A stretch of 64,000 nt of DNA from Actinomycetota bacterium (lineage in GTDB: Bacteria > Actinomycetota > Coriobacteriia > Anaerosomatales > UBA912): contig JAGXSC010000010.1 in NCBI GenBank assembly GCA_018334075.1, positions 37,102 to 101,101 on the forward strand. Reading direction: 5' to 3'. A program made the position numbers and the translations under genes. This document shows, in pieces, positions 27,555-62,922 of the stretch (position 1 is the stretch's first letter; each line of letters opens with the position of its first letter). Under the pieces are notes generated by a model. That model saw nothing but the letters and a program-made list of their open reading frames with translations. It did not search any database and was not told the DNA's origin.

Positions 27555-28493
27555 CTACGCTTTCAGGCCGAGGCCTACTTGTTGCAGCTTGTCCTTTACC
27601 TCTTCAATCGACTTCGCACCAAAGTTGCGAATATTGAGAAGGTCATTCTCGCTGCACTCGGTTAGTTGACCAATGGTGTTGACCCCTTGGCGCCTAAGGC
27701 AATTGTATGAGCGAACCGAAAGATCCAGGTCCTCGATTGGCCTGTCGAGATCACCTTCGGAGTCATCCTCCGATACACGGAAGATTCCCTCATCCGGTAG
27801 CGCGGATACCGCCTGATCGGCAAATACCAGCATGTGCTCATTGATTATCTGCCCTGCACGGGCCACAGCATCACTCGGCTCTATCGCACCGTTGGTCTCA
27901 ACTTCCAAAATAAGCTTGTCGTAGTCGGTTCGCTGTCCGACTCGAGTGTTCTCTACCACATATGTGCACCGCGAAACTGGAGAGAATAGTGAATCGATCA
28001 GGATGGTATCTACGGAGTCGTCCACTGGCCTGTTCTTGTCGGCGGCAATATAACCGCGCCCGACACGAATGCCGACTCTCATTTCCAGAGTCGCACCTTT
28101 CGCCAGATGGGCGATAACAGCATCTGGATTCACGATATCAAACTCTGCGGGAATCTCGAGGTCGGCAGCTGTGACAACACCCGGTCCGGATTTCACAAGA
28201 GTAGCAACCGCGCTATCGCCCTCGATGCCTGTCGACCGAAATATCAGCGACTTCACGTTGAGTACGATATCAGTGACATCCTCACGAACTCCATCCAGGG
28301 AAGCAAACTCATGATGGACTCCGGAGATCCGTATGGAGCAGGCAGCAGCTCCCTGTAGGGAAGACAAGAGCGTGCGGCGCATGCAGTTCCCGAGCGTGTA
28401 ACCAAAGCCTCTCTCGAGGGGCTCCATGGTATATCGAGCTAGGCAGTCGCCGATCTGCTCTACATTGACACTTGGTCTCATAAACTCTGTCAC
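27555..28493 (-). CDS. rpoA: DNA-directed RNA polymerase subunit alpha
   Basis: Full-length RpoA with a C-terminal HhH domain (LSVRSYNCLRR...NFGAKSIEEV). Confidence 0.96.
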   Translation of the reverse strand: MTEFMRPSVNVEQIGDCLARYTMEPLERGFGYTLGNCMRRTLLSSLQGAAACSIRISGVHHEFASLDGVREDVTDIVLNVKSLIFRSTGIEGDSAVATLVKSGPGVVTAADLEIPAEFDIVNPDAVIAHLAKGATLEMRVGIRVGRGYIAADKNRPVDDSVDTILIDSLFSPVSRCTYVVENTRVGQRTDYDKLILEVETNGAIEPSDAVARAGQIINEHMLVFADQAVSALPDEGIFRVSEDDSEGDLDRPIEDLDLSVRSYNCLRRQGVNTIGQLTECSENDLLNIRNFGAKSIEEVKDKLQQVGLGLKA

Positions 28494-42714: not shown

Positions 42715-43905
42715 CTAAATCTACTTCAAAATCTTTGTTACTCGTCCCGAGCCTACGGTTCTTCCGCCTTCGCGGATGGCAAATCTCAAGCCATCCTCCA
42801 TCGCGATCGGAGCGATGAGCTCGCCGCGGATCTCCACGTTGTCACCGGGCATTACCATCTCGGTGCCCTCGGGCAGGTGAGCGATGCCGGTCACGTCTGT
42901 GGTACGGAAGTAAAACTGCGGGCGATATCCATCGAAAAACGGAGTGTGACGTCCGCCTTCTTCTTTGGTAAGCACGTAGACTTGGCCTAGGAACTCGGTG
43001 TGAGGGGTGATCGAGCCGGGCTTGCAAAGCACCTGGCCGCGCTCGATATCGGTACGCGAGACACCGCGCAAAAGCACGCCCACGTTATCTCCGGCCTGAG
43101 CCTCATCGAGGAGCTTGCGAAACATCTCCACACCGGTAACGACGGTCTTGTGGGTATCGCGGATACCGACTATCTCGACGTCGTCTCCGACCTTTACCAC
43201 GCCTCTTTCAACGCGGCCTGTGGCTACCGTACCGCGACCTGTGATGGTAAAGACGTCCTCTACCGCCATGAGGAATGGCTTGTCGATCTCGCGTACGGGA
43301 ATCGGAACGTGGCTGTCTACCGCTGCGATAAGCTCAAAGATCGCTTCTTTGGCCGACTCGTCGCCCTCTAGCGCCTTTAGTGCCGAGCCCTTGATTACAG
43401 GTGTGTCATCGCCCGGAAACTCGTACTCGTTTAGCAGCTCGCGAATCTCAAGCTCTACAAGCTCGAGAAGTTCGGGATCATCGACCATGTCAACCTTGTT
43501 CAAGAAGACCACGATGTGCGGAACGCCAACCTGACGGGCGAGCAGGATATGCTCGCGTGTCTGGGGCATAGGGCCATCCGCTGCCGAGACAACTAGGATA
43601 GCGCCGTCCATCTGCGCGGCACCGGTGATCATGTTCTTGACGTAGTCAGCGTGACCCGGGCAGTCGACGTGAGCGTAGTGACGAGATTCGGACTCGTACT
43701 CTACGTGTGCGATAGCGATAGTGATACCGCGCTCACGCTCTTCGGGGGCTTTATCGATCTGGTCGAAGGGGGTGAAATCAGCCCACCCTTTTTCGGCAAG
43801 TGTCTTGGTGATAGCGGCAGTCAGCGTGGTCTTACCATGGTCGACGTGACCGATAGTGCCGATGTTGACGTGCGGCTTGGTGCGCTCAAACTTTTTCTTG
43901 GCCAT
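42715..43905 (-). repeat. tuf repeat copy A (~1.19 kb, direct repeat of 61732..62922)
   Basis: My base-by-base comparison found about 24 single-nucleotide differences across the 1191-bp shared repeat (CDS plus 6 nt beyond the stop). The flanks then diverge. Confidence 0.9.
42721..43905 (-). CDS. tuf: Elongation factor Tu (copy 1, in the str operon)
   Basis: [18 protein letters not shown] and NKVD motifs. Follows fusA. Confidence 0.97.
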
Positions 43906-47083: not shown

Positions 47084-47112
47084 ACTGTATCAGTCGACAC
47101 TAAGGATGTCAA
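47084..47112 (-). promoter_or_regulatory. Sigma-70-type promoter for the rpsL (str) operon
   Basis: Minus strand TTGACA-N17-TACAGT, about 75 nt upstream of the rpsL ATG. Confidence 0.5.
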
Positions 47113-47156: not shown

Positions 47157-47196
47157 CCGCAAAAGCCGGCACCGCAGGGTCTCTGCGACGCCGGCT
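47157..47196 (-). terminator. Rho-independent terminator after rpoC
   Basis: Minus strand GCCGGCgtCGCAGagaccCTGCGgtGCCGGC followed by TTTTGCGGTTTG. It begins 7 nt after the rpoC stop. Confidence 0.65.
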
Positions 47197-47202
47197 CCTA
47201 AA

Positions 47203-50200
47203 TCACGCGAGGGTATGTCCTGCCGACTCGAGTCGAGCGCGTATCTCGCTTATAGACTTTGCTCCCAGTCCTTCAATTGAGAGCAGGCCGTTGCTTCCCT
47301 TGTTCAGAAGCTCGCCGATGCTCATTACTCCAGCGCTGATCAAAGCTCTTTCAACTCTGACCGGAAGGCCAAGCTCTATAACCCCGGCATCTGTTGAAAG
47401 CGCCTCCTGGCCATCCGACTGAGGTATGGGGCTGTCATCGGCCTCAGGATTCGGGCTCACCTCCATGGCATCAAGGGGCTGTGAGGCACCCTCTTCGGCA
47501 CTTTGGCCTTTACCCTCGTCCTCGACCTCGGGCTCAAATACTTTATCCGAGAAACCCGACACATCGGCAAAAATATCATCGCCGCCAGCGCTGTCAAAGT
47601 CAGCGAAGAACTGTGATGTGTCTCCTCCGAGGAGCTCTGCACTCTCTGACCGCAACGACGGCTTGGGAAGCATGGCATGTAGCTCGCGAAGGTCATCGGG
47701 GGCAAACTGTGGTAGCGGATCTTCGGTAGCAGCATCCCACTCTGCCTTTTGGCCCTTATAGGTAAGAGTTACGCCTCGATACCGCTTCATTCCAGTCGCG
47801 GCCGGAATAAGCTTCCCGATAATCACGTTCTCTTTCAATCCGAGCAGGCTATCCTCTTTACCCGCAATGGCTGCGTCGGTAAGAACCCGAGTCGTCTCCT
47901 GGAAAGAAGCAGCTGACAGATAGCTATCCGTTGCAAGAGAGGCCTTGGTAATCCCAAGGAGAACGGGAGAAGCTGCGCCGGGAGTCCCTCCGTTTGCCAT
48001 CACCCCTCGGTTCGCCGTCTCAAAGATAAAGCGATCGACAAGCTGTCCAGGCAGGAACTCTGTGTCGCCTGCTTCAATAACAGTGACTCTCTTCAGCATC
48101 TGGCGGGCGATCACCTCAATATGCTTATCATTGATATCGACTCCCTGGCTACGATAGACCGCCTGCACCTCATCGACCAGGTAACGAAGCACATCTCCGG
48201 ATCCCTTTAGGCGAAGCAGCTCATGAATGTTGACGGCGCCCTCCGTGAGCCTGTCACCAACTGCAACTTTAGATCCCGTAACCAATCCATGACGTATACG
48301 AGCCCTGGGAACCTGATAGCTTTCCAGGCGCGAACCATCTTGCTTGGTGGTGTCGAGGATGATCAACCTGCAGATGTCGCCTTCTTGCTCGACACTCAAC
48401 TCACCGGCGACAGATGACAGAACCGCTGCACCCTTGGGATTCTTCCGGGCCTCGAACAACTCTGTCACGCGAGGGAGTCCGTGAGCAGCGCCTTCCTTGT
48501 AGTACAGAACGGCTCCCTGCCACTCCAACATATTGCGCTCGGCGCCCGTTATGTCTTTTTCGCCTAATCCTCCAGTATGGAACGTTCTCATGGTCAACTG
48601 CGTGCCCGGCTCGCCGATAGACTGAGCAGCTATGATTCCAACTGCGGTACCGATTTCGACCGGAGCACTGCTTGCCAGATCCCATCCGTAGCACTTCTGG
48701 CATATGCCGTGCTTCGCGTGACACGTCATCACTGCTCTGACTTCTACGGCCTCTACACCTGCGGCCATAATGGCATCAACATCACTCGGGCGGAGATAGT
48801 CTCCACTATCCGCTATGATCTCGCCGGTTGCCGGATCAGCAACTGGACGCAGCAGGCAGCGGCCAACCAGATTACTATCGCCTCGGGCTTCATCCGACTC
48901 GAGTTCGAGCGCGATTACAAGCCCTTCATCTGTACCGCAATCTGTCTCCCGGACGATTACGTCTTGTGCTACATCAACGAGCTTCCTTGTTAGATAACCT
49001 GAGTCCGCGGTTCTGAGTGCGGTATCGGCCAATCCCTTTCTGGCACCATGCGCAGACAGGTAGTACTCCAGGACCGGCAGTCCCTCTCGGAAGTTGGAAG
49101 CAATCGGTCGTTCGACGATAAATCCATTGGATTTGGCCATCAATCCCCGCATTCCAGCAAGCTGACGAATCTGCTTGATGTTTCCGCGGGCTCCAGAGTT
49201 AGCCATCATATAGATTGGATTGAACCTGTCGAAACTGGCGGCCATCGCTTCGCCGACATCATCAGTGGCCATCGTCCATATCTCGACGATTTGCCGGTGT
49301 CTCTCTCCGCCGGTTATCAATCCTCGATCATACTTTTGGTTGATGTCCTCTACTTTGGAGCGGGCCTTATCAAGAATACCCTGCTTTGCATCGGGTATCT
49401 TGGCGTCGTAAACAGAAACGGTCAGTCCCGCACGAGTCGCGTAGTGGAAGCCCAGGCGCTTGAGTTCATCGAGTATGCCAACCATGATATTGGTGGAGTA
49501 CCGGTTCGCGCAGCCTTCAACTATCTTGGAGATGGCCTTCTTGTCTACATCGTAGTTGATGAAGGGGTGATCCTCGGGCAAGGCGCGGTTGAAGAACACC
49601 CGACCCACAGAGGTCTCAAGCCGCTCCCCCGCCTTACGCTCGAAAGCGACGATCTGCTTGCCTTCCCTGCGCTCCTCGACAACGTCTCTGCGCAAACGGA
49701 CTGAGATCGAGGCCTGCAAATCAAGGCCACTGCGTGCGTCATAGGCCAAAGTGGCCTCGTGCGGACTTGCAAATACCCTGCCTTCCCCAGGCATGCCTTC
49801 CCTGGTAGACGTAAGGTAAAAAAGTCCGATGATCATATCTTGCGTAGGCGTGACCACTGGCCGCCCAGTAGCAGGCGACTTGATATTGTTGGTTGACAGC
49901 ATGAGCACTCTTGCCTCCGCCTGTGCCTCGGCGGAGATGGGCACATGAACCGCCATCTGATCACCGTCGAAGTCAGCGTTGAATGCAGTACAAACCATCG
50001 GGTGAATTCTTATAGCCTTGCCCTCCACCAGTACAGGCTCGAATGCCTGTATGCCGAGGCGGTGCAGGGTTGGTGCACGGTTGAGCATGACCGGATGGTC
50101 CCGGATCACCTCTTCGAGGACATCCCAAATTACGGGCCTGCCTCTATCCACCATGCGCTTCGCGCTCTTGATATTCTGCGCATAGTCCAGATCGACAAGA

Positions 50201-51618
50201 CGCTTCATGACGAAGGGCTTGAATAGTTCGAGTGCCATGGTCTTCGGCAAGCCGCATTGGTGCAACTTCAGTTCGGGACCGACAACAATAACCGAGCGGC
50301 CAGAATAGTCGACCCTCTTTCCGAGAAGGTTTTGCCTAAAGCGCCCTTGCTTGCCCTTGAGCATATCGGCAATCGACTTCAGCGGACGGTTGCCTGGACC
50401 GGTTACGGGACGGCCGCGGCGACCATTGTCGAAAAGCGCGTCTACCGCTTCTTGCAACATCCTCTTCTCGTTGTTGACGATGATCTCAGGTGCACCCAAA
50501 TCAAGGAGGCGCTTGAGACGATTGTTGCGGTTTATAACCCTACGATACAGGTCGTTCAGGTCACTTGTAGCGAAACGGCCGCCATCGAGCTGAACCATGG
50601 GCCTGAGATCCGGTGGGATAACTGGAATCGCATCCAGTATCATCCAGCTTGGATGATTGCTTGAGCCCTTCAGGGCGGCAACCACCTTGAGCCTTTTGGT
50701 TGCCCTCTCTTTTGCTTGGCCCTTACCTTCCGCGATTATCGTGCGCAGTCCGGCAGCCAACTCCTCCAGATTGATCTGATCGAGGAGATCTCTGATAGCC
50801 TCAGCGCCCATTCCCCCACGGAAGTAGTCACCATAACGGGACTTCATCTCCCTATACAATGCCTCGTTTGGAATTAGCATCTTTGGGGTCAACTTCTGGA
50901 ACGTCTCGAAAGCCTTGCTGTAAAGGTCGCGACGATCCTCGTAGTCCTCGGTAATGTCGCGAATCTCCTGCTCGCACTCTTTTTCAAGCTTTTTGATGCT
51001 ATCAGCGCCAAGAGGTTCGCCGTCAACATGATCGCCATCCTCGGGATCAACCTCTCCCTTGGCTCTGGCAATCATTTTGTCCCGGTTTTCAATCGTGGCT
51101 GCAATTTCCTGTTGCATCTCAGCCTCAAGGCTATCCATATCCGCCGCGAGCTCGTCCCTGAGAACGGGCATGTCAGCCTCACGGTCATCTTCATTTACGC
51201 TCGTGATGATGGAGGCAGCGAAATAGAGAACCTTCTCAAGATCCTTAGGAGCTATATCGAGCAAGTAGCCGAGCCTGCTCGGCACGCCTTTGAAGTACCA
51301 GATATGGCTTACCGGAGCCGCAAGCTCAATGTGGCCCATCCGATCTCTACGAACCTTCGCCCTTGTGACCTCGACGCCGCAGCGCTCGCACACGATGCCC
51401 TTGAAGCGCACGCGCTTATACTTGCCGCAGTGGCACTCCCAGTCCTTAGTGGGACCAAATATCTTTTCGCAAAACAGTCCGTCCTTTTCGGGCTTGAGCG
51501 TGCGATAGTTGATAGTTTCGGCCTTTTTGACCTCGCCTTTCGACCACTGCCGGACCTTTTTTGACGATGCCAGTCCAATCCGTAAACGGTCGAAGTTGTT
51601 CACGTCTATATCAAGCAC
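47203..51618 (-). CDS. rpoC: DNA-directed RNA polymerase subunit beta-prime, with ~180-aa C-terminal extension
   Basis: NADFDGD catalytic motif, Zn-binding CHCGKY...CERCG, and a coiled-coil lineage insert near residues 140-230. GTG start 3 nt after the rpoB stop. Confidence 0.97.
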
Positions 51619-51621
51619 GTG

Positions 51622-54600
51622 CTACTCCTCCTCAGTGAGGTCGTCGGGCAAATCCAGTGCACAAACGTCACTCTCGATCAGTCTCTCCAGATCCACAGTG
51701 GAAATCTGTTCCGCCTCAAGCGGGTCCTCGGTTCCCAAATCAAGTCCAAGCTCCTGTGCAGTCTGGAAGATATCGTCCGTATCCTCTTTCAGCCCAATCG
51801 CTCCGCCGTCCTCTGACAGAACCTCGACGTCAAGACAGAGTGACTGCATCTCTTTCACAAGCACCTTGAAGGACTCGGGTATCCCGGGTTCGGGTATATT
51901 GTCGCCCTTCACTATGCTCTCGTATGCTTTCACCCTACCAAGCACGTCATCAGATTTGATGGTGAGTATCTCCTGCAAGAGGTAGGCCGCGCCATACGCG
52001 TACAGCGCCCAAACTTCCATCTCGCCAAAGCGCTGTCCGCCGAATTGCGCCTTACCTCCGAGAGGCTGCTGCGTTATCAGGGAGTATGGGCCCGTAGAAC
52101 GAGCGTGAATCTTGTCATCTACCAGGTGCAGCAGCTTGAGAATATAAATCTGACCTACGGTTACAGGCTCCCTGAACGGCTCTCCTGTTCGACCGTCAAA
52201 GAGGGGCGCCTTGCCCTCTGGAGTCAAGCGAGGAACTGAGCTCTCGATGACCTTGTCGCCATAGCGAGCCTTGGCTTTCATCAGCATGTTGTTATTGGCC
52301 GCTCCTAGAACCCTCGATATCTCTTCTTCTTTTGCCCCGTCGAAAACCGGAGTAGAAACGAAGTTCGGGCCCTCTACCGGCTCCTTCTGCTTTTCGTCAT
52401 CGGACCAGCCCACAAACGAAGCCCACCCAAGGTGGGTTTCGAGTAGCTGCCCGATGTTCATTCGGCTAGGCACACCCAGCGGATTGAGGATGACATCCAC
52501 TGGCGTTCCGTCCGCAAGGAAAGGCATATCTTCCACCGGGAGTATCTTCGAGATTACACCTTTGTTGCCGTGTCGACCGGCGAGCTTGTCGCCCTCGGAG
52601 ATCTTTCGCTTCTGGGCGACCTTGACACGGACTAGCTCGTTTACGCCAGGCGACAGATCATCTCCGGCAGCACGACTGAACTTCCTGATACCGATTACAC
52701 GCCCAGTCTCGCCGTGCGGTACTCGAAGTGAGGTGTCCCTGACTTCACGTGCTTTTTCGCCGAAAATCGCTCGAAGCAGCCGCTCCTCGGCGGTAAGCTC
52801 CGTGTCACCCTTCGGCGTGACCTTACCTACAAGTACATCTCCGGGGAATACCTCCGCGCCGATGCGGATGACCCCATCCTCATCGAGATCTGCAAGAATC
52901 TCTTCGCCCACGTTGGGGATTTCCCGAGTGATGTCCTCGGGTCCCAACTTGGTATCGCGCGCTTCGACCTCGTACTCCTCTATATGGATGGAGGTCAGGA
53001 GATCCTCTTTCACCAAGCGCTCAGAGAGAATAATGGCATCTTCGTAGTTGTACCCCTCCCAGGGCATAAACGCCACGAGAAGGTTCTGTCCCAAGGCTAG
53101 CTCGCCCTGATCACTTGATGGTCCGTCAGCCAATACCTCGCCCGCCGAGACCGTCTGTCCCTCGGCGACTATAGGCCGATGATTGATGCAGGTACCCTGG
53201 TTTGAGCGAACGAACTTCGGCATGAAGTACTCGTCGGCGCCCTTGCCATCAGCGGCACGAACAACAATCTTATTGGCGTCGGCATACTCCACAACGCCAT
53301 CCCGGTGAGCCAGCAGAACCTCGCCGGTGTCAGTCAGGGCGCGATGCTCAAGGCCGGTGCCGACCAGCGGCGCCGAGGTGCGTAGCAGTGGAACGGCTTG
53401 ACGCTGCATGTTCGAGCCCATGAGCGCTCTGTTTGCGTCGTCGTGCTCCAAAAACGGAATCAGCGCCGTCGCCACCGAGACCATCTGCCTAGGCGAGACG
53501 TCCATATACTGGACGTTGGCGGGCTCGACCTCTTCCGGGTCACCGCCCCGCATACGGCAAAGAACCCTGGCGCCGAAGAACTTGCCCGTCTTCGGATCAA
53601 ATCGCTCGCTTGCCTGGGCGATTACGAACTTTTCCTCGATGTCCGCGGTCAAATACTCAATCTCATCTGTAACCTTGCCGTTCACAACCTTGCGATACGG
53701 AGTTTCGATGAATCCGTACGCATTGATGCGAGCAAACGTTGCCAGTGAGCCTATAAGACCGATGTTCGGTCCTTCAGGAGTCTCGATCGGGCACATCCGC
53801 CCATAGTGGCTGGGGTGGACGTCCCTGACCTCAAATCCGGCTCGCTCACGCGTAAGTCCCTTCGGGCCAAGGGCCGAGAGTCTGCGCTTATGAGTCAAGC
53901 CAGCAAGCGGGTTGGTCTGATCCATGAACTGCGAAAGCTGCGATGAGCCGAAGAATTCCTTTATGGCCGCAACGATGGGCCGTATGTTGACCAGTGATTG
54001 CGGGGTGATTTCCTCCACGTTTTGAGTGGTCATGCGCTCCCGAATGACACGCTCCATTCGAGCCAACCCGATCTTGAATTGATTCTGAATCAGCTCACCC
54101 ACACTGCGAATACGTCGATTGCCAAAGTGATCGACATCGTCAACGTAGTAGCCCTCTTCTCCCTCAAGGAGCTTAACGAGGTACTGCGTGGCGGCCAAAA
54201 TATCATCGTTTGTAAGAGTTGACTGGGTATCAGGCAGATCCAGTCCCAGCTTCTTGTTGATCTTGTATCGGCCAACCTTGCCAAGATCATACTTTTGCGG
54301 ATTGAAGAACAGCTCGTGCAAAAGATCTTGACCGGCCTTTGCCGTTGACTGCTCGCCTGGCCGCAGCTTTTCGTGTATTGCCTTCAATGCCTCTTCCCGA
54401 GTATCCGGCGGACGCTTACCCTTGTCCAGGGTGCGAAGGATGCACTCCGAGTTGTCGAACAGCTCGAGAATCTCTTCGCGAGTCTCGGCGATTCCCAAAG
54501 CCTTGATTAGCAACGTCGCAGACATTCTGTGCTTGCGGTCTATGCGAACCAGGATGTCCTTGTGCCTGCGATTGCCCTCCAGCTCGAGCCACGCACCCCT

Positions 54601-56442: not shown

Positions 56443-56662
56443 ACGAAAACTCGGATACTTGTCGCACCGAATCAATGTCACTCGTAGGCTTCCACCTCGG
56501 CAGGCGGATCAATATTCAATCGATCCATTAGGCGAAAAAGTTGCACCTGCTGTCTTGGGCGGTCTAAGTTGCACACACATATATAGTTTTGAAGCTCCGA
56601 CAGTATCGGGCAGGGAGCGAAGAAATGCAAGTATCGTTTATGGTTCGGGTACAATAAAGGAC

Positions 56663-57361
56663 ATGGAACTCGATGTACCGCCTCATGGTAAATCGGCTCG
56701 CTCCGAAGATATATCGGAGGTCAGAGCCGCTCTCGACAACGCTCTACTCTCTCGCGATCGGGCCACTGCGCTTGCGGTCACAGCTGAAGCTCTAGACCGA
56801 GGTACGATTTCCATTCCCGAGCTTTACACACTCGTGCTCGGGCCTCTGATGACCGACACTGGCACTGCATGGCAGTCCGGCATCACTCGTATCTGGGAGG
56901 AGCATTATGCATCGGCGATTGTGCGCACTATCGTCGAATCCTTGGCCACCCGTGTCCTGACAGAGGCTGCCTGCAGGCCTAGCAAGGGCGAAACCGTGCT
57001 ACTGGCATGCCCGCCCGACGAATACCACGACCTTGGGCTGAGGATGTTTCTGGATCGCATGCTTCTCGCCGGATACGATGCGCACTTCCTCGGCGCGGAC
57101 ACACCGATCGCCGAGATACTCGATGCCGCCGTACGTCTCAACACGTCCCTCGTCATCCTTTCGGTCTCGACCCACTTTCATCGTGTGAGATTGCGTGAAA
57201 CTATCGCCGTACTATCCAAGAGCCTGCCTGCTGGAACTCGCATTGCCGTAGGTGGACCCGCCTGCGCGAAAAATGCATCGGGCATCGAAGCCTACCTGCT
57301 CGACGAGGCTAAACTCGGCTTGGAGGAAGTTCGAGGAGGACCGCCGGAATGCTCTCCCTGA
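56663..57361 (+). CDS. Stand-alone cobalamin (B12)-binding domain protein, CarH/LitR-sensor-like, without a DNA-binding domain
   Basis: Four-helix cap motif GTAWQSGITRIWEEHYASAIV (B12-binding_2-like), followed by a Rossmann module with ExHxxG (DEYHDLGLRM) and FLGADTP...LSVS. ATG 56663 with an AAAGGA SD. The track's 5' extension runs into the rplJ leader. Confidence 0.7.
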   Translation: MELDVPPHGKSARSEDISEVRAALDNALLSRDRATALAVTAEALDRGTISIPELYTLVLGPLMTDTGTAWQSGITRIWEEHYASAIVRTIVESLATRVLTEAACRPSKGETVLLACPPDEYHDLGLRMFLDRMLLAGYDAHFLGADTPIAEILDAAVRLNTSLVILSVSTHFHRVRLRETIAVLSKSLPAGTRIAVGGPACAKNASGIEAYLLDEAKLGLEEVRGGPPECSP

Positions 57362-58488
57362 GAATTGCGGTCCGCTTTCTACGCACAAGCCCCGTCCAGT
57401 CTGCGCTCATAGTGGCTGGGATCGCTGTCGGCATCGCCACACAGGTCTTTGTGGGCTCGCTCATAACAAGCTTGCAGACCAACCTCGTGAACACGACTAT
57501 TGGATCAAGCCCACATATTACAATCAGCGCTCGAGAAGACGAAGAACCGGTCGTTTTCAGTGAGCAGCTTAGCTCGCTAATAACCAAAGACGCGCGAGTT
57601 GAGCCCGGAACGGTTGTGCCCGTACGAACATCCTCGGCGCTCTTCACCGACGGCGAAAGCAGTGCGCCTCTAAGCTTAACTGCTGGCCGCCTTGGCGAGC
57701 TCGATCGTATCTACGCCCTAACCGAGCGTACGCAGAGTGGAGTCCCAAGCCTTGATACAGGTGAGGCCATCGTTGGTATTGACTTTGCGAAGAATAACGG
57801 TCTTTCACCGGATGATTACATCTCTATTGTCTTCGCCGAAGGAGGCGGGGCTCGCCTTAAAGTTACCGCGTTCGTCGATTTGGGATCTGCAGCTGCAAAC
57901 GAGCGGACAGCATTCATAGGGCCCGGACTCTTGCGCGACCTGAAGGGATGGTCATCTGACGAGTACTCGGTCGTTCAAGTCCAGGTGCTCGAGCCCTTCG
58001 ACGCCGCTACGGTAGCCTCCGAATGGCGCAGAGCACTACCTGGGGTCTCAATATCGGATTGGCAGGCAGAAAACGCTGACCTTCTCACAGCTTTGCAGAG
58101 TCAATCAGCATCCTCCTACATGATCCAAGCATTTGTTCTCGTCGCGGTAGCGCTTGGAATCGCTTCGACGCTGGCAATCAGCGCCGTGCAAAAGACGCGA
58201 CAGATTGGCATCTTGAAAGCGATGGGACTTTCCGACAGGCGCTCCGGAAACATCTTCCTTTGGCAAGCAGCAATACTCGGGTTGAGCGGAACAGCTAGCG
58301 GCGTCGCTTCGGGGTATGCGCTAATCTGGGGCTTCTCCTTTGCCCCTGTGCCATTTAGCATCACGCCGGAACCCGGGTTCATCGCGCTATCCTCATCGAT
58401 AGGCGTTCTGGTGGCACTGCTATCCTCGATCATCCCAACGCGCAAGACATCGCGTCTCGATCCAATCGAGGTGATCCAAAGTGGCTGA
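57349..58488 (+). CDS. ABC transporter permease, MacB/LolCE (FtsX-domain) family
   Basis: MLSLRIAVRFLR... N-terminal TM helix, a large extracytoplasmic domain and a C-terminal FtsX-type 3-TM bundle. It overlaps the upstream gene by 13 nt. Confidence 0.8.
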   Translation: MLSLRIAVRFLRTSPVQSALIVAGIAVGIATQVFVGSLITSLQTNLVNTTIGSSPHITISAREDEEPVVFSEQLSSLITKDARVEPGTVVPVRTSSALFTDGESSAPLSLTAGRLGELDRIYALTERTQSGVPSLDTGEAIVGIDFAKNNGLSPDDYISIVFAEGGGARLKVTAFVDLGSAAANERTAFIGPGLLRDLKGWSSDEYSVVQVQVLEPFDAATVASEWRRALPGVSISDWQAENADLLTALQSQSASSYMIQAFVLVAVALGIASTLAISAVQKTRQIGILKAMGLSDRRSGNIFLWQAAILGLSGTASGVASGYALIWGFSFAPVPFSITPEPGFIALSSSIGVLVALLSSIIPTRKTSRLDPIEVIQSG

Positions 58489-59185
58489 TCGGCTCCTTCT
58501 CGCCGAAGGGCTAAGCAAGGTTTACGGCAGCGGCGAAGCCTCCACAAGGGCGCTCGATGACGTGTCTTTCGAGTTTAGCGAGGGCGAGTTTGCTGCAATC
58601 ATCGGTCAATCGGGTTCGGGGAAATCCACCCTTTTAAACCTACTCGGCCTTCTTGACACGCCAACATCAGGTAAGGTGCGCTACCGAGATCACGAAACAG
58701 GGTCGCTCGGCGCAAAAGCCCGCGCCGAACTGCGAAACGAGCTGATCGGCTTCGTCTTCCAATTCCATCACCTGCTACCGGAGTTCACTGTTTTCGAGAA
58801 CATTGCCATGCCCGCACTCATTCGCGGCAAGCTATCCATCGCTGACATCCGGGAACGCGCCGAGGAGACACTCGGCCTCCTCGGACTCTCAGGCGTTGAA
58901 GAGAAGAGCGCAAACGCTCTGTCGGGAGGCCAGAAGCAACGCGTGGCTATCGCGCGAGCACTCATGAACCGCCCGGCGTTAGTGCTAGCCGACGAGCCGA
59001 CCGGCAATCTCGATACGACCAACACCGAGCTCGTCTATGAGCTCTTCAGGAAGGTAAGCTCCGAGACGGGCACCGCGTTCCTCATTGTGACACACGATCG
59101 AAAAGTCGCCCAACGCACCGACCGGATCCTCGAGGTGCTCGACGGCAAACTAGTGTCAGACGAGCGCAACCTGTATCTGGACTGA
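58481..59185 (+). CDS. ABC transporter ATP-binding protein, MacB/LolD-type
   Basis: GQSGSGKSTLLN, LSGGQKQRVAIARAL, VLADEPTGNLD. Overlaps the permease by 8 nt. Confidence 0.9.
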   Translation: MADRLLLAEGLSKVYGSGEASTRALDDVSFEFSEGEFAAIIGQSGSGKSTLLNLLGLLDTPTSGKVRYRDHETGSLGAKARAELRNELIGFVFQFHHLLPEFTVFENIAMPALIRGKLSIADIRERAEETLGLLGLSGVEEKSANALSGGQKQRVAIARALMNRPALVLADEPTGNLDTTNTELVYELFRKVSSETGTAFLIVTHDRKVAQRTDRILEVLDGKLVSDERNLYLD

Positions 59186-61731: not shown

Positions 61732-62922
61732 CTAAATCTACTTCAAAATCTTTGTTACTCGTCCCGAGCCTACGGTTCTTCCGCCTTCGCGGATCGCAAA
61801 TCTCAAGCCATCCTCCATCGCGATCGGGGCGATAAGCTCGCCGCGGATCTCCACGTTGTCACCGGGCATTACCATCTCAGTGCCCTCAGGCAGGTGAGCG
61901 ATACCGGTCACGTCTGTAGTACGGAAGTAAAACTGCGGGCGATACCCATCGAAAAACGGAGTGTGACGTCCGCCTTCTTCTTTGGTAAGCACGTAGACTT
62001 GGCCTAGGAACTCGGTGTGAGGAGTGATCGAGCCGGGCTTGCAAAGTACCTGGCCGCGCTCGATATCGGTGCGCGAGACGCCGCGCAAAAGCACGCCCAC
62101 GTTATCTCCGGCCTGAGCCTCATCGAGGAGCTTGCGAAACATCTCCACACCGGTAACGACGGTCTTGTGGGTATCGCGGATACCGACTATCTCGACGTCG
62201 TCTCCGACCTTTACCACGCCTCTTTCAACGCGGCCTGTAGCTACCGTACCGCGACCTGTGATGGTAAAGACGTCCTCTACCGCCATGAGGAATGGCTTGT
62301 CGATCTCGCGTACGGGAATCGGAACGTGGCTGTCTACCGCTGCGATAAGCTCAAAGATCGCCTCTTTGGCCGACTCGTCGCCCTCTAGCGCCTTTAGTGC
62401 CGAGCCCTTGATGACGGGTGTGTCATCGCCAGGAAACTCGTACTCGTTTAGCAGCTCGCGAATCTCAAGCTCTACAAGCTCGAGAAGTTCGGGATCATCG
62501 ACCATGTCTACCTTGTTCAAGAAGACCACGATGTGCGGAACGCCAACCTGACGGGCGAGCAGGATATGCTCGCGTGTCTGGGGCATGGGGCCATCCGCTG
62601 CCGAGACAACTAAGATAGCGCCGTCCATCTGCGCGGCACCGGTGATCATGTTCTTGACATAGTCAGCGTGACCCGGGCAGTCAACGTGAGCGTAGTGACG
62701 GGATTCAGACTCGTACTCTACGTGTGCGATAGCGATAGTGATACCGCGCTCACGCTCTTCGGGGGCTTTATCGATCTGGTCGAAGGGGGTGAAATCAGCC
62801 CACCCTTTTTCGGCAAGTGTCTTGGTGATAGCGGCAGTCAGCGTGGTCTTACCATGGTCGACGTGACCGATAGTGCCGATGTTGACGTGCGGCTTGGTGC
62901 GCTCAAACTTTTTCTTGGCCAT
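61732..62922 (-). repeat. tuf repeat copy B (direct repeat of 42715..43905)
   Basis: See copy A. Both copies are in the same orientation, about 19 kb apart. Confidence 0.9.
61738..62922 (-). CDS. tuf: Elongation factor Tu (copy 2)
   Basis: The ORF-track protein is identical, residue for residue, to the copy at 42721..43905. It lies between the tRNA cluster and rpmG. Confidence 0.97.

Follow-up and report, generated by a model that had tools for sequence, protein, structure and literature searches.

An alpha-CTD-like domain on a long C-terminal tether of the RNA polymerase beta-prime subunit in the class Coriobacteriia

In bacterial promoter architecture the two C-terminal domains of the alpha subunits (alpha-CTDs) are the only mobile modules of the core RNA polymerase that contact DNA and activators, acting at UP elements and in class I and class II activation, and the alpha linker that holds them is roughly 15-25 amino acids (aa) long. 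NusA of gamma-proteobacteria, another core transcription protein, bears the lineage-specific helix-hairpin-helix (HhH) domains AR1 and AR2 on flexible acidic C-terminal sequence; AR2 binds the alpha-CTD and auto-inhibits RNA binding by NusA rather than binding DNA. In Pol II, the C-terminal domain (CTD) of the largest subunit, Rpb1, exits close to the omega/Rpb6 site, where the clamp has its base. For the E. coli alpha-CTD itself, R265 and N294 are known to enter the minor groove, and K291 and K298 to bind phosphates (PMC7822876, PMC5101437). Here we describe rpoC, the gene for the beta-prime subunit, in a 64,000-nucleotide stretch of DNA (the window) from a Coriobacteriia-related Actinomycetota bacterium (assembly GCA_018334075.1, contig JAGXSC010000010.1). 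The encoded beta-prime ends in a folded domain that, by profile and by predicted fold, is a member of the alpha-CTD family PF03118 (RNA_pol_A_CTD), and the core enzyme carries three alpha-CTD-type modules, two on alpha and one on beta-prime.

The rpoC open reading frame (ORF) lies on the minus strand at 47203..51618 and encodes 1471 aa followed by a TGA stop (47203..47205), as established from the ORF translation, Pfam and NCBIfam; the frame is uninterrupted over all 1471 aa. A Pfam scan finds Rpb1 domains 1-5 in order (PF04997, PF00623, PF04983, PF05000, PF04998), the translation contains the NADFDGD catalytic motif, and the general rpoC model TIGR02386 is matched with 1702 bits against a cutoff of 963.5. 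Because the alignment to TIGR02386 stops at residue 1281, the C-terminal extension is taken to begin at residue 1284, which leaves a canonical beta-prime of residues 1-1283 (47770..51618, minus strand; translation, Pfam and NCBIfam) and an extension of 188 aa (residues 1284-1471, 47206..47769). An earlier note on this DNA, made from the sequence alone, had described a tail of 182 aa past the canonical end. The extension is real and uninterrupted, as that note supposed, but its start had been placed six residues too late.

The last 66 aa (residues 1406-1471; 47206..47403, minus strand) make up the alpha-CTD-like HhH domain, which was recognised with Pfam, BLASTP, AlphaFold2 and Foldseek. Within it, residues 1409-1464 (47227..47394) match PF03118 with 38.5 bits when the full-length protein is scanned and with 44.5 bits (E 1.2e-11) when the 65-aa tail is scanned alone; both scores exceed the curated gathering cutoff of 23.8 bits, whereas the generic HhH model HHH_5 (PF14520) reaches only 11.4-18.8 bits in the window, below its own cutoff of 27 bits. 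On these profile scores the alpha-CTD model is the better fit to the tail domain; the earlier note had foreseen a match to one or the other of the two. A BLASTP comparison of the rpoC tail with the RpoA encoded in the same window gives 22/53 identities (42%) without a gap (E 2e-9), in line with the claim that the last ~60 aa align with the CTD of that RpoA, and the sequences quoted for the two proteins, with their shared GAKSI pentapeptide, are correct in the translations. The 51 best matches to the tail among all PDB sequences are RpoA chains, with the Bacillus subtilis alpha-CTD at the top (E 6e-7). AlphaFold2 predicts four helices for the 65-aa tail with a predicted local distance difference test (pLDDT) score of 94.3, and in a Foldseek search of the PDB the top 50 matches to this model are all alpha-CTDs, with template-modelling scores (TM) of 0.85-0.91 and root-mean-square deviations of 0.8-1.2 Å (~1.0) over ~62 residues. 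Among these matches are 3K4G, 1LB2 and 3N4M from E. coli and 1Z3E and 3GFK from B. subtilis, and the model superposes on alpha-CTD crystal structures of both species.

The domain is nevertheless not an RpoA, since its carrier is the wrong one and the acidic equivalent of residue 261 is absent; the RpoA equivalog models give only local matches to the window rpoC, far below cutoff. The window's own RpoA is encoded by the ORF at 27555..28493, and its alpha-CTD (residues ~251-312 of 312; 27558..27743, minus strand; BLASTP and alignment) is intact, with the equivalents of R265, N268, C269, N294, G296, K298 and S299 all kept. Because this alpha-CTD is intact, the beta-prime domain is an addition and not a replacement or compensation.

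Two stretches of the tail precede the domain. The first, residues 1284-1325 (42 aa; 47644..47769, minus strand), was delimited by alignment, by the ratio of nonsynonymous to synonymous change (pN/pS) and by the structure model; all the Coriobacteriia-type beta-primes sampled have it in common, and its model combines a beta-hairpin with a helix (E15-28, H40-49) at a pLDDT of ~60-66, which is modest confidence. The segment is probably structured. The second, residues 1326-1405 (~80 aa; 47404..47643, minus strand), is an acidic linker defined by composition, model and pN/pS, with 22 D/E vs 2 K/R and an isoelectric point (pI) of 4.05, and holds the short conserved motifs FFADFD and DVSGF..VFEPE. 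The structure model shows a pLDDT below 50 and no secondary structure over residues ~1320-1397, and the linker is predicted to be intrinsically disordered. The earlier note had read some 120 aa as an acidic, low-complexity linker, a description that holds for the ~80 aa of 1326-1405 but not for the first 42 aa, which are conserved and under purifying selection. The domain at the end of this chain is approximately neutral in net charge (pI 5.7).

An unusual fusion in a metagenomic contig could be an artefact, in which the tail was joined to rpoC by mis-assembly, made continuous by a frameshift that hides a stop, or is in truth a separate small gene. The assemblies and the pattern of selection leave this a negligible chance. 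The identical 1471-aa protein is deposited at NCBI as MBS3973690.1 (from a metagenome-assembled genome (MAG) labelled 'Actinobacteria bacterium') and recurs intact in Logan, ENA and JGI assemblies, and isolate genomes have the same uninterrupted architecture. Its 90%-identity cluster comprises ten members of 1441-1485 aa, whose linker indels preserve the frame and whose domain hardly varies; linker length differs by 28-44 aa among close relatives. With the exact protein in independent assemblies and the relatives' indels in frame, the continuity of frame on which the earlier note depended is upheld. Selection, moreover, acts in the rpoC frame. Compared with the relative L002 (92% identical, from an ENA contig), and with change counts that are small, the folded domain shows 1 nonsynonymous against 6 synonymous changes (pN/pS 0.06), the conserved segment 1284-1325 likewise 1 and 6 (pN/pS 0.05), and the linker 16 and 6 (pN/pS 0.74), a pattern of substitution that fits the expectation for a disordered tether bearing a folded domain that is translated. 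The base composition of the tail matches the remainder of rpoC, and no nucleotide similarity was found between the rpoC-tail DNA and the CTD-coding DNA of rpoA; the lack of such similarity, together with the presence of the fusion in many independent assemblies, disposes of mis-assembly and of a recent rpoA duplication. In favour of an artefact it may be said that 'stand-alone' PF03118 proteins of 50-120 aa exist in the protein database. However, the short matches of 50-123 aa returned by the CTD-profile protein search are fragments from contig ends, proteins with adapter-derived MCIRDS starts and frameshifted calls from error-ridden assemblies, and were rejected as stand-alone CTD genes. One such case is L083 (GCA_015471965.1, BNJU01001469.1, a 128-kb contig), where assembly frameshifts have evidently broken rpoB and rpoC into eight pieces and so given rise to a 110-aa alpha-CTD protein (P0013) that only seems to stand alone. 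In the window, a terminator-like hairpin with a T-run, which starts 3 nt past the rpoC stop (47160..47200, minus strand), marks the true 3' end of the gene.

To survey the distribution of the domain, the C-terminal 420 aa of the protein were used as query against a set with a single genome for each GTDB species, and the rpoC 3' ends were then extracted. The domain is present in frame in 21/21 complete Coriobacteriia-type rpoC loci (L003-L006, L009-L025), the positive loci, with their taxonomy checked, coming from UBA7524, Anaerosomatales and several genera of Eggerthellaceae and including the isolates Enteroscipio rubneri ResAG-96 and Adlercreutzia sp. Marseille-QA1605 (chromosome), and PF03118 was passed by all six of the six Coriobacteriia tails tested (25.6-41.1 bits). 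At a further locus (L008) the contig end cuts the gene and the beginning of the domain is visible. By contrast the rpoC 3' ends of L026-L082, which by record title are mostly Bacillota and Eremiobacterota, with Solirubrobacteraceae, other Actinomycetota and a few other or generic labels, lack the domain in 57/57 loci. The alpha-CTD-like beta-prime domain is a conserved trait across the class Coriobacteriia, and the fusion is ancient and under purifying selection throughout the class. A search with the 198-aa tail as query gave a single match, the word-indexed search being dominated by the low-complexity linker. An exhaustive profile search of representative proteins returned only fragments of Coriobacteriia beta-prime and multi-repeat PF03118 proteins; it is silent on fusions outside the Coriobacteriia because full-length Coriobacteriia beta-primes are probably hidden in clusters that have another sequence as representative. 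The nearest species representatives are only ~57% identical to the window protein over the query region, and the window organism is for this reason placed on a deep, poorly sampled branch.

The position of the domain within the tail varies with lineage. In the lineage of the window and in other deep branches it forms the very C-terminus of beta-prime, and in Eggerthellaceae it is internal, with a linker rich in G/S/Y before it and a strongly conserved acidic segment of ~100 aa after it. The acidic character of the linker described in the earlier note does not extend to the Eggerthellaceae, where the sequence before the domain is of this other composition. The Eggerthellaceae segment that follows the domain is near-invariant among L009-L024 (..MSQLLDMVFSPDDTILIGGDEP..LPPRSYQRNLEELDALLG..), and no family match to it was found; its 'VF(E/S)P(E/D)' motif resembles the DKVFEPEVE that precedes the domain in the window (~47530..47556). 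A locus from an Actinomycetota MAG (MFD04716.bin.2.67; L007:4877-5092) shares the conserved segment and the acidic linker of the window, which are followed there by a Cys-rich motif, CKAMKGDGEQCTNKARPGSDYCGVH, and ends without an alpha-CTD-like domain; its DUF5763 and zinc-finger matches are sub-threshold, and it may represent a module swap on the same tether. A different conserved extension of beta-prime, of ~110 aa and with the pattern ..YEGEY(D/E)..TQY..KGINPEDL, was seen in seven loci that are mostly Eremiobacterota/WPS-2 (L031, L034, L045, L052, L053, L060, L062), and has no alpha-CTD similarity.

The recurrence of acidic sequence beside the domain bears on a view in which the polyanionic disordered chain is the main actor, as a mimic of DNA or RNA or as an electrostatic regulator, and the HhH domain is its intramolecular partner in an auto-inhibited tail. 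Such a tail would affect recycling or specificity and not promoter contact, in the manner of the acidic tail of Bacillus delta or of sigma-70 region 1.1. The strong charge of the linker (22 D/E vs 2 K/R) and its predicted disorder agree with this, as does the constant presence of an acidic stretch beside the domain, on its N-terminal side in basal lineages and on its C-terminal side in Eggerthellaceae. Acidic tails likewise close the rpoB of this genome and many of the rpoB and rpoC genes of Gram-positive bacteria. The constraint, however, lies elsewhere: the linker is near-neutral in its evolution (pN/pS 0.74) and varies in length by 28-44 aa, and it is the folded domain that is conserved (0.06). 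Acidic tails that lack the domain are, moreover, common in other bacteria, so that retention of the HhH domain across the whole class would be left unexplained. We regard both the chain as main actor and the effect on recycling or specificity as distinctly improbable.

The residues of the folded domain are more informative. An alignment of the E. coli alpha-CTD, the window RpoA and 23 beta-prime domains is gap-free over E. coli residues 257-314; the E. coli reference was checked and is an exact match to residues 249-329 of PDB chains. Four positions have the E. coli residue both in the window and in 23/23 beta-prime domains: R265 (window R1421), G296 (G1452), K298 (K1454) and E302 (E1458). Two others are Gly in the window and in all 23, namely N294 (G1450) and E261 (G1417). 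At N268 the window has Arg (R1424) and 18 of the 23 have Asn; C269 is Ala in the window and Lys in 19/23; and S299 is kept in the window (S1455) and is Ala in 21/23. E. coli positions 287, 315 and 317 are variable or absent. The core of the DNA-contact set (R265, G296, K298) is accordingly kept in the alignment and the minor-groove reader N294 is lost. For the window itself, the earlier reading that R1421, G1452, K1454 and S1455 are retained and that the N268 equivalent is Arg agrees with this alignment. The hairpin of the beta-prime domains reads G-h-G-x-K, which is the classical form of an HhH hairpin. Among the protein-contact positions, we take E261 (with the acidic residues at ~259/261) to be a contact with sigma-70 region 4, and residues ~287, 315 and 317 are presumably the CAP-contact set of the alpha-CTD.

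Taken with the predicted fold, these residues suggest that the domain probably, though by no means securely, gives the core enzyme a third, long-tethered module for contact with DNA, a function that we infer from sequence and models. The C-terminus of beta-prime adjoins omega at the base of the clamp in structures of bacterial RNA polymerase and Pol II. From there, segment 1284-1325 would probably pack on the enzyme surface and the acidic disordered chain of ~80 aa would serve as the tether for the folded domain. The module may bind double-stranded DNA through the same face as the alpha-CTD, in which case R1421 would enter the minor groove and the phosphate backbone would be contacted by the G-h-G-x-K hairpin (G1450, G1452, K1454). 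The tether would be long enough to bring promoter-upstream or other nearby DNA within its range. The invariance of the R265, G296, K298 and E302 equivalents supports DNA binding, as far as the alignment can indicate. The loss of the N294 equivalent would probably make such a contact less A/T-specific than that of the alpha-CTD, and with Gly at residue 261 it would probably not involve sigma region 4. The residue pattern points to an extra, largely non-specific DNA anchor, possibly also a docking site for regulators, rather than to a copy of the UP-element reader. The bolder proposal, that the module, on its tether of ~80-120 aa, acts as a sigma-independent third contact with nucleic acid or activators well outside the range of the alpha-CTDs, far upstream or downstream, and so provides the whole class, Eggerthella of the gut included, with a mode of promoter engagement or of DNA retention by the core enzyme found in no studied bacterium, is speculative and has perhaps a modest chance of being right.

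Several points weigh against DNA contact as the function. The DNA-reading set of the alpha-CTD is incomplete in the beta-prime domains, with N294 replaced by Gly in all 23 and S299 by Ala in 21/23. A neutral domain sits on a strongly acidic chain, which could mask the DNA-binding face. The alpha-CTD is also a hub of protein interactions, and conservation of the Arg and Lys alone is no proof of DNA binding; the related AR domains of NusA bind protein. An alternative is that the domain is mainly a protein-protein docking module, a third alpha-CTD-like handle for regulators. The alpha-CTD is an activator hub, and the Foldseek matches include its complexes with CAP, Spx, Rob and RpaA; the protein-binding HhH domains of the NusA acidic repeats are the next-best PDB sequence matches after RpoA, and the domain is not basic. 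The linker motifs FFADFD and DVSGF..VFEPE are, further, typical of docking motifs, and Eggerthellaceae carry after the domain the additional highly conserved acidic segment of ~100 aa. Yet the surface residues that are invariant are those of the DNA-contact face (the R265, G296 and K298 equivalents), while the protein-contact sets are not kept, with residue 261 Gly in all and 287, 315 and 317 variable or absent, and no partner is known. We consider docking as the main function unlikely, and any one partner from the candidates that could be named (a transcription factor, a sigma or anti-sigma factor, a NusA-like factor or a repair protein) must be viewed with the same reserve.

DNA contact by a tethered module remains our preferred reading. 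Among described systems the alpha-CTD of RpoA is the closest: it shares with the beta-prime domain the PF03118 family, the four-helix HhH fold, a gap-free alignment, the equivalents of R265, G296, K298 and E302, which are invariant, and a flexible linker that ties the domain to the polymerase core. The differences are that the beta-prime copy occurs once per enzyme and is not attached to the alpha N-terminal dimerisation domain, that its tether is ~80-120 aa against ~25 aa in the window's own RpoA, that Gly stands without exception at the equivalents of N294 and E261 and Ala usually at that of S299, and that the sigma (261) and CAP (287) contact sets are not conserved in it. The NusA domains AR1 and AR2 resemble it as HhH domains on an acidic tail, but their sequence similarity is far weaker than that of the alpha-CTD (E 0.6-0.7 for the acidic repeats) and the carrier is another protein. 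With the CTD of Rpb1 there is only an analogy, in that both are long flexible C-terminal extensions of the homologous largest subunit; the Pol II CTD is a phosphorylated heptad repeat that recruits factors and not a folded HhH domain, and it is unrelated in sequence and fold.

PF03118 domains also occur outside RpoA in proteins with unrelated carriers. Some are tandem arrays that reach 11-13 copies, and others are SNF2/ResIII helicases that carry 3-4 copies at the C-terminus (P0036, P0037-P0040; P0100, P0107, P0141, P0149). They are like the beta-prime fusion in their portable use of the same domain family, and differ from it in their 3-13 tandem copies; no beta-prime sequence was found in these repeat and helicase-fusion proteins. 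Because the domain is fused in multiple copies to SNF2/ResIII helicases, it can be regarded as a portable module on DNA-acting enzymes, which speaks for DNA binding by the beta-prime copy. With a profile built from the beta-prime CTDs, the best non-RpoA domains score 55-61 bits (57-61 bits for the single domains of P0142, P0123 and P0067) against 42 bits for the CTD of the window RpoA, a comparison biased by the pre-selection of the non-RpoA repeat proteins as top matches and made over ~60 residues, too few to resolve the origin of the domain.

The proposal in the earlier note of a third, flexibly tethered alpha-CTD-like module on beta-prime is supported by profile, predicted fold, predicted disorder of the linker and reading frame. 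Its remark that it knew of no characterisation of this architecture needs to be narrowed. The best NCBIfam model for this protein is NF011498 (PRK14906, 1459 positions), which the window rpoC matches with 2084 bits against a cutoff of 1437 and which spans the domain, the window domain aligning to model positions 1317-1368, and the precomputed Pfam annotation of the protein already lists PF03118. The long form is in this sense already catalogued, only under the plain name 'subunit beta-prime'. A survey of beta and beta-prime domain architectures published in 2024 masked the N- and C-terminal extensions (PMC11515920). No paper on a fusion of beta-prime with an alpha-CTD was found in the full-text literature, a coverage that leaves out most subscription journals, and the architecture appears to be uncharacterised in the literature. 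The lack of characterisation thus appears to stand, but the architecture is neither peculiar to this genome nor uncatalogued, being class-wide in Coriobacteriia and implicit in the Pfam annotation and NF011498.

The surroundings of the gene are as expected for the region, with the order rpoB-rpoC-rpsL-rpsG-fusA-tuf, in which rpoB is upstream of rpoC and the rest downstream. Upstream of rpsL there is a sigma-70-like promoter, TTGACA-17-TACAGT, which matches at 10/12 positions (47084..47112, minus strand) and is mentioned for context only; the DNA upstream of it is G+C-rich and not a UP-like A/T tract, a single anecdote from one promoter. The last ~70 aa of rpoB (51622..51834, minus strand) also form an acidic tail, with 24 D/E vs 2 K/R, and the pattern LDLG...ALE.LIE.D(I/V)SALD in it is kept in the window lineage and in further deep-branching Coriobacteriia-type loci. 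Since an rpoB with an acidic tail is a common sight among the Gram-positive loci sampled, that of the window looks ordinary. EF-Tu is encoded by two copies of tuf (42721..43905 and 61738..62922, both on the minus strand; 394 aa each), which have 24 nucleotide differences and identical proteins. Between rplJ and rplA, three plus-strand genes at 56459..59185, encoding a protein with a B12-binding domain, an FtsX-like permease and an ABC ATPase, break the opposite-strand rplKAJL cluster.

The view of promoter architecture in which two alpha-CTDs are the sole mobile contact modules meets here a whole class of Actinomycetota, including the cultivable and medically relevant Eggerthellaceae of the gut, that has a third module placed on another subunit and on a much longer leash. 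The trait is a clean natural case of a domain shuffled among the subunits of the polymerase. It is also a molecular marker for Coriobacteriia at the level of the class, and it has been sitting unremarked inside an NCBI family model and Pfam annotations. Should the module turn out to bind DNA or regulators, this clade would call for its own extension of the models of promoter recognition, of activator geometry and perhaps of elongation or retention on DNA.

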